From a virus: 64,000 nt of DNA. The notes below the pieces were generated by a model. It made no database searches and was not told where the DNA came from. It worked only from the letters and a program-made list of their open reading frames with translations. Within the stretch, counting starts at the first letter, position 1. Each line of letters opens with the position of its first letter. Both the position numbers and the translations under genes were made by a program. Below, piece after piece: positions 1,430 to 21,124 of the stretch. The stretch covers positions 1 through 64,000 of IMG/VR virus record IMGVR_UViG_3300033145_001087. One strand, given 5' to 3'.

Positions 1430-1633
1430 ATGGTATTTCACTTAGGAGACAAAGTACGAATTAAAAAAGGCACTCAATTTGCTTCCCAATCAACGGTTAG
1501 TGGAAAGATAATAGATATAGGCGGCGGCCAATGGATTGAAGTCCTGTTTGTTAACGGGTATCGAAATTCCTATCCAAAAGATGATTTAGAAATGACTAGG
1601 ATAACTAATTGGAAAAAAGAACTAGGAGGGTAA
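1430..1633 (+). CDS. small SH3/KOW-like protein with C-terminal TNW tag (#1)
   Basis: Starts FHLGDKVRI and ends RITNWKKELGG. Abuts the E2 paralog. Confidence 0.8.
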   Translation: MVFHLGDKVRIKKGTQFASQSTVSGKIIDIGGGQWIEVLFVNGYRNSYPKDDLEMTRITNWKKELGG

Positions 1634-1634
1634 A

Positions 1635-2105
1635 ATGAAATTTGAAAAAGGAAAAACATACGACTTTAAATGGAAGGAAGATAAACACCCAGTTTCATAT
1701 ACATTTATGGAACAATTAGAGGATAAATTATTGTTTCACAAAAAGGTGCCTACATTAATGATTCCAGAAGCACTATTAGGATATATAGAAAGTGGTGAAG
1801 TGATAATAAAAGAAAATACGTCCTATGAAAAATTAATCCCAGAATCTGAAATTAAAGGCAGAACAAAGTTTATTATAAACAAAAACAAAAGATGTTGTTT
1901 ATGTCAAGGTAGAGAAATAATAGAAATTATAGGTGATAAAAAAACAACAAATTTAACCCCATCACCAAATGGTCTATTTAAATGTAAAAACCAAAATGAA
2001 TGTAGACAAAACATAGATGCCGAGAATACCGTATTAACTTTTTCAAATGATAAAATAGACATTAAAAAATTTAAGGAGGAAATATTTTCAATAAGTAAAA
2101 AATGA
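1635..2105 (+). CDS. hypothetical protein with Zn-binding Cys cluster
   Basis: CCLC...C....C, SD GGAGG, operonic spacing. Confidence 0.6.
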   Translation: MKFEKGKTYDFKWKEDKHPVSYTFMEQLEDKLLFHKKVPTLMIPEALLGYIESGEVIIKENTSYEKLIPESEIKGRTKFIINKNKRCCLCQGREIIEIIGDKKTTNLTPSPNGLFKCKNQNECRQNIDAENTVLTFSNDKIDIKKFKEEIFSISKK

Positions 2106-2404
2106 CCGAACACAAAAAAGTCACAAAGATAAATACCTATCTAGGAGAACTTAGTGTGGGTGATAAAATAAAGTTATCTTGGGCGCCTGGTGGAATACCG
2201 GAACGAAAATATTATACACTTTTTTCAATTTGGGTAGACAGTAATAATAATATTGAATTAGGATTCTCTCAAAGAAGTATAGAAAAAATAGGTGCTACAT
2301 ATTCGTGGGACGGTGGAAATAGTATTATTAAAAAGGGGTCTTTGTTGAAAATAATAAAAGGAAAAGTTACCAACTGGAGAAAAGAGGTTGAGAATGACAT
2401 ATAA
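2102..2404 (+). CDS. SH3-like protein with TNW tag (#2)
   Basis: LGELSVGDKIKLSW; ends KVTNWRKEVENDI. Confidence 0.8.
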   Translation: MTEHKKVTKINTYLGELSVGDKIKLSWAPGGIPERKYYTLFSIWVDSNNNIELGFSQRSIEKIGATYSWDGGNSIIKKGSLLKIIKGKVTNWRKEVENDI

Positions 2405-2696
2405 AAAAATCAATAGTGTAGCAACTCATTTAGGAGAACTTAATGTAGGTGATAAAGTAAGATTATCTTGGACGCCTGGTGATGTTACCTCTTTAAAGGA
2501 TGATTATTACAAAATTTATGCTATATGGGAAAACAATAGACGTAAAAGTATTGGTTTAGGATTAACAAAAAAAAGCATAAATAACCCAGATGAAAAACAC
2601 AGTTGGTGGGGAGGTACGAGTATTTTAGAATATGAGTCATTAATAGAAATTAGAAAGACAACTATAACCAACTGGAAAAAGGAGATAAATAAATGA
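2394..2696 (+). CDS. SH3-like protein with TNW tag (#3), tandem paralog of #2
   Basis: LGELNVGDKVRLSW...SWWGG; ends TITNWKKEINK. ATG 2394 follows GAGGT. Confidence 0.8.
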   Translation: MTYKKINSVATHLGELNVGDKVRLSWTPGDVTSLKDDYYKIYAIWENNRRKSIGLGLTKKSINNPDEKHSWWGGTSILEYESLIEIRKTTITNWKKEINK

Positions 2697-3229
2697 TACT
2701 CACCACTAAACAAATATATAAGCTATTCATTCATAGAACCGATATTTATGCAGAACAACAGGTATCAGGGTCGTATTACATAATCAAAGAACCTATAACT
2801 CTAATTGATATAGAACAACATCTAAAAGGAGATAAAACATTAGGAACTTATGTTTTGAATACTGATAATACCGTTAAATGGGCGTGTATAGATTTGGATG
2901 GTAAACAATTAAGAACATTATATCCATCAGCAACCATTATTTATAACAGTTTTAAAGACTTTCCTCGCATATTAGAATTTAGCGGAAGAAAGGGGTATCA
3001 TATATGGATATTCTTTAGGTGTAGAGTGACGGCGGATTACGCACAAAAACTGGTAAAAGCGAGATTGAACCGTATTAGTCTAAATTATTTTGAAGTATTC
3101 CCTAAACAAACAGAACTAAATGAAAACCGTAAGTATGGAAATCTAGTTAAGATTCCTTTAGGAACACATAAAGTGTCAGGTAAAAAATCAACAATAATGA
3201 AACACGATAAGTTAAATGAGGTGTTATAA
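2693..3229 (+). CDS. minimal archaeo-eukaryotic primase (AEP) catalytic domain
   Basis: WACIDLD (motif I), SGRKGYHIW (motif II), EVFPKQ...GNLVKIPLG. Confidence 0.8.
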   Translation: MILTTKQIYKLFIHRTDIYAEQQVSGSYYIIKEPITLIDIEQHLKGDKTLGTYVLNTDNTVKWACIDLDGKQLRTLYPSATIIYNSFKDFPRILEFSGRKGYHIWIFFRCRVTADYAQKLVKARLNRISLNYFEVFPKQTELNENRKYGNLVKIPLGTHKVSGKKSTIMKHDKLNEVL

Positions 3230-3504
3230 TGACCTTTAAAGAAGGAGATAGAGTTAAAACAACTACTGAGGTTGGATATGTTCATTTAAATGGGTCATCT
3301 AGTATTAATTATAAAGGAACCGTAACTCTTTTTAGAGGGTTATTACGAACTTCCGTAGGAGTGATATTTGATATGCCTATAGAGGGGCATACTTTAAGTG
3401 GTCACTTACCATCAGGAAGCAAAAAGGGTTGGTGGTGTCAAATAGAAGAATTAAAATTAATACCTACAAAAATAACTAATTGGAAGAAGGAACTAGGAGG
3501 GTAA
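3229..3504 (+). CDS. SH3-like protein with TNW tag (#4)
   Basis: FKEGDRVK...VGVIFD...GWWC; ends KITNWKKELGG. Confidence 0.8.
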   Translation: MTFKEGDRVKTTTEVGYVHLNGSSSINYKGTVTLFRGLLRTSVGVIFDMPIEGHTLSGHLPSGSKKGWWCQIEELKLIPTKITNWKKELGG

Positions 3505-3506
3505 AA

Positions 3507-3698
3507 ATGACAGAGGAAAAACTTGTAGTATATACTTTTGAAGGTATATATAATTTTGATACTATTGAAGAAGCAGAACAATGGAGGATTAAACGAAAGG
3601 GGTCTATAATAATAAGGATTAAATATCTATTTTATAAAATACGTAAATATAGGAGCAGAATCAAAAGATATATCAAAGGTGAAAGTGTATGGCATTAA
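3507..3698 (+). CDS. hypothetical protein
   Basis: ATG 3507 follows GGAGG. Confidence 0.5.
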   Translation: MTEEKLVVYTFEGIYNFDTIEEAEQWRIKRKGSIIIRIKYLFYKIRKYRSRIKRYIKGESVWH

Positions 3699-19643: not shown

Positions 19644-19676
19644 TATATATATAATTCTATAGGTGAGTTGATTTAA

Positions 19677-19898
19677 ATGACTAGAGAAGAACAATTAATA
19701 AAAGAGGATAACATATTTCTATTGTCCGAAACAGATAATTATTCTTATTACATCTGTAAAGGATTAAGTAAAAAAGTTTATGAGATTATTTATAATAAAC
19801 AAATGGAAAGTTTTAACTGTTCTTGTAGGAATGTAAGACTACAGGATTGTTACCATATTAAAGCAATACGGATTCTTCAAGATGAAAATGCAATTTAA
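19677..19898 (+). CDS. SWIM zinc-finger protein
   Basis: CSC-x6-CYHI. Confidence 0.7.
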   Translation: MTREEQLIKEDNIFLLSETDNYSYYICKGLSKKVYEIIYNKQMESFNCSCRNVRLQDCYHIKAIRILQDENAI

Positions 19899-20213
19899 AA
19901 ATATTGTTAGCACAGGCATCAAAATAGGAATAATAATTATTTCTTGCTGTATCTTAGTGTTTATACAATATCTTGCTTTTATAGGGACAGAGTAACGCCG
20001 GATTAGGTGGTAATGCCACCTAACGCTCATATCTTCGTTCTAAGCGACTCTATTTTTTCAGAGTAGTAAACTACTCAAAAATGAAAAAGTCTGCTTAAAA
20101 GCGTGTTTCTATGCGTCTGAGAGCATTCCGTGATGCGTGTTTAACTGTTTTATTTGATGTTTAAAACACTGTTTACCATTAATATAGGTATAACTACACC
20201 AGTATACGAATTA

Positions 20214-20471
20214 GTATACTGGTATACTTTTTGAAAGGTGTATGAATAGCTGTATGGCGGTTATACACATAGCGTATACCGCTGTATGTATAGCGTATAC
20301 CTCCTTGGTTTAATATATATCTTTAAAGGAGGTATAAGCGTATACCGCTATGTGTGTAGCTATTGACACAGCGTATACCGCTATACATACAGCTATACAC
20401 ACAGAGATATACGCTATGTATACAACCGTACATAGATAGTCATACACCTTTGTAAAAGTATACTAGTATAC
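20214..20471. repeat. large imperfect palindrome with four AGCGTATACC iterons around an AT-rich core (candidate replication origin)
   Basis: Outer arms 20214-20245/20440-20471 are 29/32 complementary. Inner arms TATACCTCCTT/AAGGAGGTATA. Iterons at 20271, 20292, 20337, 20370. Confidence 0.7.
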
Positions 20472-20506
20472 AAATGTGTATACTGACCCCTAAAGGTGAT
20501 TTTCTT

Positions 20507-20851
20507 ATGAAACTAAAAACAAAACAACAAAGGATAAATGATGCAATGCGGCTTCTTGACAGGTCATATAATATTAAAAAGAATGTTATTAAAATAAATA
20601 CTACAAATACCCTGGAACACGAAATGGCAAAACTAAAGGTAGTGTATGATTGGATTTCTAGGGGATATGACGTATATACAGAAGTTATATTTAAAAACAA
20701 TAAAGGAAGAGCGGATATATTTATCCCTTTTTTATTCAGAGTAATAGAAATACTACATTCTGAATCTAAAAAAGAGTTCCTAAATAAGGTATTAAAGTAT
20801 CCTGACGAAGTAGAAATAATGCACTATACCACAGAAGAGGTGTTAAAATGA
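20507..20851 (+). CDS. PD-(D/E)xK-like nuclease
   Basis: HE..K...TEV.F....RADIF...VIEIL.SE. ATG 20507 follows GGTGAT. Confidence 0.6.
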   Translation: MKLKTKQQRINDAMRLLDRSYNIKKNVIKINTTNTLEHEMAKLKVVYDWISRGYDVYTEVIFKNNKGRADIFIPFLFRVIEILHSESKKEFLNKVLKYPDEVEIMHYTTEEVLK

Positions 20852-21000
20852 GTTATAGTACATCAACCGTATCATGGCGTAACTATGATGCCCCTATTAC
20901 AGAATATAATGACTTTGGTCTTTCACCTACGACAAAAAAGAAAAGAAAAGTAAAGAAAGCTGTTTTAAATTGGCGAAAAGAAATAGAAAAGGGTGATTAA
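20848..21000 (+). CDS. 50-aa peptide with TNW-variant tag (#10), not in the ORF track
   Basis: MSYSTSTVSWRNYDAPITEYNDFGLSPTTKKKRKVKKAVLNWRKEIEKGD; SD GAGGTG, ATGA overlap. Confidence 0.7.
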   Translation: MSYSTSTVSWRNYDAPITEYNDFGLSPTTKKKRKVKKAVLNWRKEIEKGD

Positions 21001-21001
21001 T

Positions 21002-21124
21002 ATGTTATTTATGTATTCAACTCCATTAACAACTGAGAGGGTTCTTTTTGATTGGTGGATTAAAAAATACAAAAAAGAAAAAAATGTTACTAATTGGCGA
21101 AAAGAAATTGAAAAAGAGGACTGA
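21002..21124 (+). CDS. 40-aa peptide with TNW tag (#11), not in the ORF track
   Basis: MLFMYSTPLTTERVLFDWWIKKYKKEKNVTNWRKEIEKED; SD GGTGAT. Confidence 0.7.
   Translation: MLFMYSTPLTTERVLFDWWIKKYKKEKNVTNWRKEIEKED

Follow-up and report, generated by a model that had tools for sequence, protein, structure and literature searches.

A short shared peptide that links many variable binders to one partner is a known design, exemplified by F-box and PRANC adaptors, dockerins and encapsulin cargo tags. In the F-box and PRANC families, the docking element connects every member to the same component of a ubiquitin-type ligase. In phage T4, a capsid-targeting signal is placed N-terminally and is cleaved off by the prohead protease. 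The bacterial Bil systems, conjugation operons encoding a ubiquitin-like protein, E2, JAB and E1, belong to cellular anti-phage defence and mark a phage tail protein; no E3 or adaptor is known for them, and the choice of target is open (10.1101/2023.09.04.556158). In this study, a 64,000-nucleotide stretch of viral DNA (the window), comprising the first 64 kb of the 111,430-bp IMG/VR virus record IMGVR_UViG_3300033145_001087 (G000 when compared with its relatives), was analyzed for a peptide with the consensus [VI]-T-N-W-[KR]-K-E-[ILVM] (the tag), which recurs near the C termini of small, otherwise divergent proteins (the carriers). An earlier note, made from the letters of the window and a list of its open reading frames (ORFs), had named eleven carriers and proposed a modular docking or adaptor system.

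The tag is real and is selected as a peptide; it is separable from the fold of the proteins that bear it, sits on non-homologous bodies, is uniform within each genome and has been exchanged as a set between lineages. We read it as a modular C-terminal docking peptide for one common partner per virus, which would co-evolve with it, and put the probability of this reading at about 0.6, a figure that covers docking as a whole and not the identity of the partner. We know of no such case in a prokaryotic virus at this scale (12–30 genes per genome, top-enriched C-terminal motif), nor of one in which a whole tag set was exchanged between sister lineages while the bodies stayed orthologous.

Results

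Occurrence and position of the tag

A six-frame scan of the window for N-W-[KR]-x-E gave 11 matches, all on the + strand, in frame and 7–15 residues upstream of the stop codon of ORFs of 40–100 amino acids, and zero matches elsewhere in the six frames. All eleven segments named in the earlier note were recovered at the same coordinates, both in the ORF listing and by this regular-expression scan. As a degenerate DNA pattern, the tag matched the window 11 times, against 0.00 matches expected from 100 dinucleotide-preserving shuffles. Scanning of the whole record, which the note had called for, added to the 11 window carriers nine further ones between 97.3 and 110.9 kb (Asn codons of the tags at 97530, 102342, 105152, 109249, 109539, 109784, 110442, 110645 and 110845). 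All 20 tags of G000 lie in frame at ORF ends, at a variable distance of 5–13 residues from the stop, and none is found in a long ORF or on the opposite strand; as the note had stated, replication and structural genes are free of it, in the window and across the whole record. Should the record be a circular permutation, all carriers would fall into a single region extending from ~97 kb across the record end to ~21 kb. Alternative upstream starts are available to three of the window carriers (Table 1). A DNA-pattern scan of IMG/VR with a subset of the tag codons returned four single matches, none of them at an ORF end, which corresponds to chance level. Two adjacent tRNA genes, Pro(TGG) and Trp(CCA), are located at 15930–16098 of the window; Trp is the invariant residue of the tag, and this may be a coincidence.

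Related genomes carry private versions of the tag

An exhaustive HMMER search with the carrier profile against 1.84 billion representative proteins returned five outside carriers (P0022, P0024, P0025, P0026 and P0039), together with long multi-repeat SH3_15 proteins that lack the tag. With the carrier alignment as query, a word-indexed search of 5.8 billion proteins yielded G000's own proteins only, and single-protein searches of IMG/VR with the nuclease and with E1 returned nothing. Scanning of Joint Genome Institute (JGI) metagenomes matched 163 stretches, approximately the chance number by estimate, and only one locus was confirmed. Three IMG/VR genomes were reached by alignment searches: G001 with a two-sequence E1 alignment, G002 with the carrier alignment and G006 with an E2-like alignment.

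The 4.8-kb JGI contig L010 encodes four carriers, with the tags ITDWEKEI, ITNWQKEL, ILNWEEEV and IINWEKEI, in the gene order E2-like, JAB-like, E1, four carriers, nuclease, which is syntenic with G000. G001 (47 kb, ~23% complete) encodes 29 carriers, mainly in tandem with ATGA overlaps, and its version of the tag reads K-I-x-N-W-[KR]-[E]-R-[IFL]-x-stop. In G002 (109 kb, capsid protein 79% identical), 12 carriers end in K-[IV]-x-[NS]-W-[RK]-x-x-[IL]-E. Counting from the Trp as position 0, these four TNW-type genomes have in common a hydrophobic residue at −3, a residue well suited to cap a helix N-terminally (Asn, Ser or Asp) at −1, Trp at 0 and a hydrophobic residue at +4, followed by one or two residues and the end of the protein, which comes 5–6 residues past the Trp in 53 of 65 carriers. 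Position +1 is Lys or Arg everywhere except in L010, where it is Glu or Gln in all four carriers. At +3, Glu is found in 20 of 20 tags of G000 and in four of four of L010, and Arg in 29 of 29 of G001, whereas this position is free in G002.

The fifth genome, G006 (94 kb, capsid protein 68% identical), has the same operon and the same nuclease and methyltransferase-like neighbors, and it encodes 20 small carriers, none with a TNW tag; their shared ending is x-L-M-D-L-[KEV]-hydrophobic. Homology to TNW carriers is seen in three of its body families, at 35–51% identity and with alignments ending just before the tag. Thus, its zinc ribbon is 38–43% identical to those of the TNW carriers, its homologues of the 1430-type carrier are 35–36% identical, and its homologue of carrier 8 (11783) aligns over residues 1–71 with 51% identity, stops just before the tag and ends in NLMDLVIK. 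TNW, NW and LMD are the top-enriched C-terminal tripeptides of their respective genomes. The total comes to approximately 90 tagged proteins, 85 in the five genomes and four outside carriers from short contigs. Taken together, uniformity within each genome in the absence of DNA homogenization, divergence between genomes and full replacement in G006 are the pattern expected if many ligands co-evolve with one receptor, and the same three facts are hard to reconcile with a structural role of the tag in the bodies.

The carrier arrays of three genomes also hold an untagged, probably helical protein of 80 amino acids (G000 109981–110223, equivalent to L003:5981–6223; L011:1953–2192; G002 55948–56235), whose 47–54% identity lies far above that of the neighboring carriers and which may regulate the carriers or act as their partner.

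Selection acts on the peptide

Over the 20 tags of G000, Thr is encoded by ACT, ACC, ACG and ACA, Asn by AAT (13) and AAC (7), Glu by GAA (13) and GAG (7), Arg by AGA, AGG and CGA, and Ile/Val by six codons. All 20 tags are distinct as DNA, and the same codon is used in only 50% of cases where the residue agrees; across the genomes this codon identity is 0.50–0.54, with every tag unique as DNA, and recent gene conversion is therefore excluded. The invariant +3 Arg of G001 is encoded by AGG (12), AGA (12), CGG (2), CGA (2) and CGT (1), and the −1 Ser of G002 by AGY as well as TCN codons. Because codons vary synonymously at invariant residues, selection acts on the peptide, as the note had claimed from fewer tags and as now found over the 20 tags and those of the relatives.

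A second layer of coding is apparent in the arrays of G001 (L011 991–3310 and 11128–13530), where nearly all genes overlap by ATGA. The +1 and +2 codons of G001 are skewed to G-rich synonyms (AGG 12 versus AGA 1; GAG 13 versus GAA 4) in a genome of 30% G+C; with the stop/ATG overlap, this shows a ribosome-binding site superimposed on the tag in G001, that is, dual coding. Untagged array genes are coupled in the same way (e.g. L011:1953–2192), and in G000 the tag is kept by the carriers at 3689–3928 and 12045–12329 despite ~90 nucleotides without a gene downstream. Stalling of the ribosome by the nascent peptide was also considered and was dropped, given the variable distance to the stop (5–13 residues) and the same coupling of untagged genes.

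Carrier bodies and the structural position of the tag

With the tag removed, the 20 bodies of G000 formed only four small paralogue groups by blastp, and the remaining ones have in common at most an N-terminal [KR]-[IV]-G-D-[KR]-[IV] strand. The 65 TNW-type carriers, likewise stripped, fell into 34 blastp clusters with isoelectric points of 4.1–10.2 and lengths mostly of 60–100 amino acids; with one exception, carriers measure 40–108 amino acids. Approximately 85% are SH3-like, and the earlier observation that most of them open with an SH3-like GD strand was borne out, with Gly-Asp found in at least 90% of 15 aligned SH3-type carriers. Tagged proteins outside this fold comprise a zinc ribbon with an acidic linker (a form taken by one of the L010 carriers), two membrane-only proteins, the 11783 family, the protein at 97299–97553 and two short basic peptides of 40–50 amino acids; one tagged protein is of a membrane-plus-SH3 type. 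No function was assigned by Pfam, PHROGs or the ESM Atlas to any of the carriers or to the conserved 80- and 123-amino acid array proteins.

AlphaFold2 (AF2) modeling of carrier 5 (3689–3925) with 15 paralogues gave an SH3-like fold with a predicted local distance difference test score (pLDDT) of 67 and a short, low-confidence helix on residues 73–77, the site of the tag. The model of carrier 1 (1430–1630), built with 58 SH3-type carriers, reached a pLDDT of 84.7, with five strands in residues 8–55 at ~90; residues 61–67, from Trp-61 onward, were modeled as coil with a pLDDT of 52. The Trp is invariant in the 58-row alignment yet unpacked in this model. With the strands done by residue 55 and the tail of low confidence, the barrel of this model is complete without the tag. 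Foldseek aligned ~55–60 residues of this model with YorP (2heq), the CPH domain of HECTD1, Mib repeats and KOW domains at a probability of 1.0 and template modeling (TM) scores of 0.6–0.7, with E-values of only ~0.005–0.04. A five-stranded SH3-like barrel of ~55–60 residues was thus recognized in the carrier bodies only. The top score against Pfam SH3_15 was 16.2 bits, below the gathering threshold of 24, and the kinship is visible only through the carriers' own profile, which matches SH3_15 repeat proteins; SH3_15-like domains of other phages and of multi-repeat proteins are without the tag.

These results support the earlier description of a variable body joined to a constant, separable C-terminal peptide on proteins that are not necessarily homologous. 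Nor does the tag behave as the integral last helix of one SH3 fold, the outcome that the note had held against its own proposal: it lies outside the pLDDT-85 barrel, occurs on non-SH3 carriers and is replaced by another tag on orthologues. The suggestion that the tag forms an amphipathic helix fared less clearly, with a short helix in one model and coil in the better one. A further window protein (4023–4439, 138 amino acids) begins with a carrier-type R-G-D-K-I strand of SH3 type and continues into a long C-terminal extension without the tag.

The conjugation-type operon and the candidate partner

In five of five genomes, all of them related, an operon for ubiquitin-like, E2-like, JAB-like and ThiF/E1 proteins lies inside the carrier arrays. 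In G000 and L010, translational coupling links carriers to both the E2-like paralogue and E1, and in G006 carriers stand between the E2-like and JAB-like genes. Also interleaved with the arrays are genes for primase, nuclease and RNA ligase. The primase (2693–3229 of the window) stands among carriers and matches Pfam AEP-TOTE, the primase domain of TOTE conflict systems, with an E-value of 6.1e-27; it is 56–60% identical in G001 and G002.

E1 is the sole operon member with profile support (Pfam ThiF); it is 56–62% identical in L010, G001 and G002 and 38% identical in G006. The JAB-like protein is kept in L010, G001, G002 and G006, and the candidate ubiquitin-like protein (5694–6062) is an assignment taken over from an earlier note. 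In the E2-like core, H-x-H and a Cys ~12 residues later are invariant in five sequences; the 824–1429 paralogue aligns with the C-terminal domain of the 6126–7676 protein and retains His, His and Cys. Look-alike clusters of the E2-like protein in the ESM Atlas contain PF14460 (Prok-E2_D) in 15–44% of members, and a ubiquitin E2 variant (UEV) structural neighbor was obtained at a TM score of 0.46. The N-terminal domain of the E2-like protein is the most diverged part in G006, barely alignable (hhalign probability 0.35%), which fits a fast-evolving socket but proves nothing.

Complex prediction with the E2-like protein (five-row alignment) and carrier 1 (1430–1630, 58 rows) gave a score of 0.43, compared with 0.02 for the best of three controls. 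The runs agreed in at least 74% of contacts, and the partner pLDDT was at least 73. The mark used for this tool was reached by 58 of 80 solved complexes and by two of 110 mismatched pairs, but at scores of 0.60 or less by only seven of those 80 and by both mismatches that passed; as custom alignments were used here, these counts hold only roughly. The prediction lends weak support to contact between the E2-like protein and carrier 1. Combined with a prior of approximately one in eight, it lifts the E2 reading to roughly three in ten, and no further. The virus's own E2-like enzyme would be the likeliest single partner, an identification that we offer tentatively. The link of the carriers to the conjugation operon draws on conserved synteny in five related genomes and on this one weak complex score; the note's reading is supported in its architecture, and the adaptor role and the single hub are putative.

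Features of the window and nature of the virus

The carriers and operon genes of the window are collected in Table 1.

Table 1. Carriers and conjugation-type genes in the window (coordinates in nucleotides of the window; alternative starts under remarks)
Feature	Coordinates	Strand	Length (aa)	Tag (codons)	Remarks
Stand-alone E2-like paralogue	824..1429	+	201		candidate partner family; no Pfam match
Carrier 1	1430..1633	+	67	ITNWKKEL (1601–1624)	SH3-like barrel; start directly after stop of E2-like paralogue; homologues in G001, G006, P0039
Carrier 2	2102..2404	+	100	VTNWRKEV (2366–2389)	paralogue of carrier 3 (bodies 42% identity)
Carrier 3	2394..2696	+	100	ITNWKKEI (2664–2687)	alternative TTG start 2388
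Carrier 4	3229..3504	+	91	ITNWKKEL (3472–3495)	weak Pfam SH3_12
Carrier 5	3689..3928	+	79	VTNWRREL (3896–3919)	~95 nt gene-free downstream; body SH3-like (AF2 pLDDT 67); top Foldseek match Mind bomb Mib repeat
Ubiquitin-like protein (candidate)	5694..6062	+	122		kept in G001, G002, G006; no Pfam match
E2-like protein	6126..7676	+	516		fast-evolving N-terminal domain and conserved core
JAB/JAMM-like protein	7688..9031	+	447		assigned from H-x-H...S-x-x-D motif only
ThiF-family E1	9033..9725	+	230		Pfam ThiF 6.1e-19, 68.6 bits; carrier 6 directly after
Carrier 6	9743..10003	+	86	ITNWKQEL (9971–9994)	alternative GTG start 9722 overlaps E1 stop; homologues in L010 (P0022), G001, G002
Carrier 7	10682..10930	+	82	ITNWKKEI (10877–10900)	SH3-like, four Cys; 9 residues after tag; homologues P0024, P0026, L010:3934-4194
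Carrier 8	11783..12043	+	86	VTNWKEEM (12008–12031)	no GD strand
Carrier 9	12045..12329	+	94	VTNWRKEI (12297–12320)	88 nt to next gene start
Carrier 10	20848..21000	+	50	VLNWRKEI (20962–20985)	basic linker and tag
Carrier 11	21002..21124	+	40	VTNWRKEI (21086–21109)	alternative GTG start 20993

PHROG matches to a portal, an HK97-type major head protein and a minor tail protein identify a tailed virus. Its replication genes are of archaeal/eukaryotic type and comprise RadA/Rad51 with a HhH domain (6.7e-75), an RFC-like clamp loader, an AEP primase and NrdD; PCNA is also encoded, with a PCNA_N match only just above threshold. The family-B polymerase (38359–41484 of the window) has a LAGLIDADG intein-like insert at residues ~610–955, which the homologues in G002 (790 amino acids) and G006 (770 amino acids) lack. 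From this gene content we infer an archaeal host. A search of 185,579 species genomes with the E1 alignment yielded no relative and hence gave no clue to the host; among GenBank phages, the capsid protein had no match, and T4-like polymerases were only 28% identical.

The best-conserved non-structural protein of the group (25922–27112 of the window, 396 amino acids, function not assigned) is 57–62% identical in G001, G002 and G007, and its G001 homologue ends in SESLF. A second shared ending is in fact found in G001, where eight proteins of 57–382 amino acids have [D/E/S/N/P]-L-F or P-F at the very C terminus (e.g. KKDLF, KDDLF, IIPLF, IKPLF, GAPF, EENLF and SESLF); the loci are L013:906–5862 and L012:8065–9448, both on the − strand. 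The window protein at 24970–25281 ends in EEQLF and a G007 protein (75895–76410) in PKLF. This -L-F ending resembles clamp-, SSB- or stalk-type C-terminal motifs and may be a second docking code in the virus group.

Discussion

The docking reading and its consequences

In the mechanism that we propose, the tag core (hydrophobic, x, N/S/D, W, K/R, x, x, hydrophobic, one or two residues, C terminus) would be presented on the flexible tail of small, fast-diverging proteins. Most bodies would be SH3-like barrels, each recognizing a different target, alongside a few zinc-ribbon or membrane proteins, and all carriers of one virus would plug through the tag into a single common partner. This partner would co-evolve with the tag, giving each lineage its private version: TNW-KKE, NW-ER, [NS]W-xxIE or the unrelated LMDL. 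Were the partner the E2-like enzyme, the carriers could be exchangeable adaptors that bring substrates to a conjugation system run by the virus, or could themselves be its substrates. The more specific proposal, that a clade of tailed viruses, probably archaeal, runs an E3-less ubiquitin-like conjugation aimed by 12–30 plug-in mini-adaptors docking to the E2-like enzyme, is speculative, and we hold it to be possible rather than probable.

Several points weigh against the docking reading or against the E2-like enzyme as partner. Binding of the tag to one partner is what we infer from the patterns described above. The shortest carriers may be decaying remnants: a copy of the 50-amino acid carrier 10 (20848–21000) on a 10.5-kb JGI contig is 96% identical, and its two differences (A to D and W to R) both fall in the tag, with loss of the Trp. 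In the tandem arrays, the +1 to +3 codons double as the Shine–Dalgarno site of the next gene, and a constraint at the RNA level may account for part of the K/R/E preference in these arrays. Because the five genomes are related to one another, co-occurrence of tag and operon counts as one evolutionary observation and not five, and five further relatives (G007–G011, capsid-related IMG/VR fragments), having neither arrays nor E1, add nothing on this point. Neither the E2-like nor the JAB-like protein has a Pfam or PDB sequence match, their assignments resting on motifs and one language-model lead. The complex score of 0.43 is in a range where, by the tool's own account, wrong calls outnumber right ones unless the pairing was already likely, and, as a score given without an interface, it does not tell contact by the tag from contact by the barrel. 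A search for charge-compensating columns, covering the E2-like, JAB-like and E1 proteins and the nuclease, yielded nothing convincing; the sole covariation cluster, nuclease residues 148 and 151, was rejected as a local charge reshuffle within one segment.

If true, the proposal describes a kit of 12–30 adaptors that works like designed degrader adaptors, with an orthogonal, lineage-private docking code of TNW or LMDL type. The swap of these tags on orthologous bodies amounts to a natural swap experiment: the partner must differ between the two virus types, and comparison of cognate with non-cognate binding can therefore identify it. If the partner is the E2-like enzyme, the system would show how an E3-less conjugation of prokaryotic type chooses its targets, a question shared with the bacterial Bil systems, and would extend a ubiquitin-style strategy of host takeover beyond eukaryotic viruses. 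Whatever the partner, the tag–socket pairs would be candidate orthogonal docking parts, and the carriers a catalogue of small binders against host factors.

Alternative explanations

A nucleic-acid signal at gene junctions (a Shine–Dalgarno site, translational coupling or a recombination boundary) that merely resembles a peptide motif would account for the stop codons overlapping the next ATG in the tandem arrays and for the G-rich +1/+2 codons of G001. As the sole explanation it is already refuted by the constant frame of the motif, the use of all synonymous families at invariant residues (both six-fold families, Arg and Ser, among them), the distinct DNA of each copy, the persistence of the tag where no gene directly follows and the like coupling of untagged genes. 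Alternatively, the carriers could be one expanded SH3 family in which the last structural element is the best conserved and stabilizes the barrel without any docking role. The predominance of SH3-like bodies agrees with this, as does their N-terminal GD strand, which in such barrels is the neighbor of the C-terminal strand, and the lower-confidence model places a short helix at residues 73–77; the tag is nevertheless unpacked in the confident model, non-SH3 carriers are found in four genomes, homologous bodies of G006 bear an unrelated tag, and homologous SH3_15-like domains elsewhere have none, so that this explanation is largely refuted and very improbable. Little credence is likewise given to binding between the tags themselves, in which case the tails would hold the carriers together in mixed oligomers or a condensate and there would be no separate hub. 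The hydrophobic residues at −3, 0 and +4 with both charges in each version would permit self-complementary pairing and lineage-uniform tags, but 6–9 residues are very short for a stable helix pair, and the tail is predicted to be disordered.

A signal for capsid loading and ejection was among the alternatives of the earlier note; the tag would dock carriers inside the procapsid, to the capsid protein, scaffold or portal, and the carriers would be delivered with the DNA as ready-made effectors. In favor of this are the virus's HK97-type capsid protein and portal, the small size of the carriers and the encapsulin-cargo-like form of the tag, a short peptide on a flexible tail near the C terminus. 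The arrays follow immediately after the terminase gene, on its strand, so that an early time of expression cannot be taken for granted. A co-evolving socket is, however, a poor fit to a capsid protein that is 68–79% identical between genomes with strongly different tags; some carriers are integral membrane proteins and thus unlikely cargo, and the arrays are interleaved not with head genes but with primase, nuclease, RNA ligase and the conjugation operon. We regard loading into the capsid as improbable. Host-hub mimicry or a degron, in which the tag would bind a host machine (unfoldase/proteasome, clamp, RNA polymerase or ribosome), is unlikely too. The tag would then time the destruction of early proteins or bring host targets to the machine, and the lineage versions would mirror differences in host. 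Machines of this kind are usually engaged through short C-terminal peptides, among them PIP (PCNA-interacting protein) boxes, the SSB tail, ssrA and HbYX; divergence of the tag tracks overall divergence of the viruses, as host switching predicts, and the carriers resemble a fast-evolving host-takeover arsenal. Against this, the tag matches none of the motifs checked, and conserved hubs are not expected to force a full exchange of TNW for LMDL at 68% capsid identity.

Comparison with known systems

Literature searches found no description of the motif, and the tag departs from each motif definition that was checked, in keeping with the note's view that the motif is not a described one. Compared with the PIP box (Q-x-x-[LIVM]-x-x-[FYW]-[FYW]), the 65 TNW-type carriers have no conserved Gln and a single aromatic residue. 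For the LC3-interacting region/Atg8-interacting motif (LIR/AIM), [WFY]-x-x-[LIV] and usually preceded by acidic residues, a hydrophobic residue is needed where W+3 is Glu in 20 of 20 tags of G000 and Arg in 29 of 29 of G001; the hydrophobic position is W+4, and basic residues precede the Trp. A degron of transfer-messenger RNA (tmRNA)/ssrA type would be appended co-translationally, whereas the tag is encoded in every carrier ORF, and no tmRNA gene is found in the window. A Lys-acceptor site of SUMO type (hydrophobic-K-x-E), raised in the note, is disfavored: no Lys is invariant, +1 being Arg in 11 of the 20 tags of G000 and E/Q in L010, −4 being Lys in only 12 of 20, and LMDL having no fixed Lys. 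A streptide-like Lys–Trp crosslink (K-x-x-x-W) and methylation of the Trp by the virus's B12/radical-SAM enzyme were both dropped, as the −4 Lys is not invariant and this enzyme has no homologue in G001 or G002. As a class, hub-binding motifs such as the PIP box, the clamp-binding QL[SD]LF and the SSB tail are like the tag in being short, near-C-terminal peptides that occur on many proteins and bind one hub; they differ in the Gln and the aromatic pair, both absent from the tag, and the [DESNP]-L-F ending of the virus group fits the clamp/SSB type better.

The four putative components of the operon that here stands beside the carriers, of which only E1 is confirmed by profile, match those of the Bil systems in kind and order; the present operon differs in being virus-carried, among 12–30 tagged small proteins. 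The fold of the carrier bodies is that of the SH3-like repeats (Pfam SH3_15) of Mind bomb, HERC2 and HECTD1 and of Bacillus subtilis YorP (2heq), none of which has the tag. The Mind bomb repeats bind substrate (titles of PDB entries 4xi7 and 4tse).

In physical form, the nearest known system would be the encapsulin cargo peptide, an analogy based on a short peptide with a flexible linker at the extreme C terminus of unrelated cargo, a form that the tag shares. One short peptide is common to unrelated proteins in both cases, and the encapsulin shell and the virus capsid are both of the HK97 fold; the Gly-Ser-Leu-type consensus of encapsulin cargo is visibly absent from the tag. Unlike the T4 capsid-targeting sequence, the tag is C-terminal in all carriers, and, in contrast to both systems, the carrier genes stand outside the head module, and membrane proteins are among their products.

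In architecture and genome biology, the nearest analogy would be the poxvirus ankyrin/PRANC families. Their docking element, like that of F-box and BC-box proteins, is a folded helical domain of 40–50 residues that binds Skp1 or elongin C, on ankyrin (or WD40) bodies, compared with a 9-residue peptide on SH3-like bodies here; the constant part of the carriers amounts to 8–9 residues and gives no Pfam F-box or PRANC match. The present virus is tailed, with archaeal-type replication genes, and encodes its own E1, E2-like and ubiquitin-like proteins rather than Skp1, cullin or elongin. What the carriers would share with the poxvirus families, and with F-box and BC-box proteins, is the plan of a set of viral genes whose products each join a variable domain for target binding to a constant C-terminal docking element.

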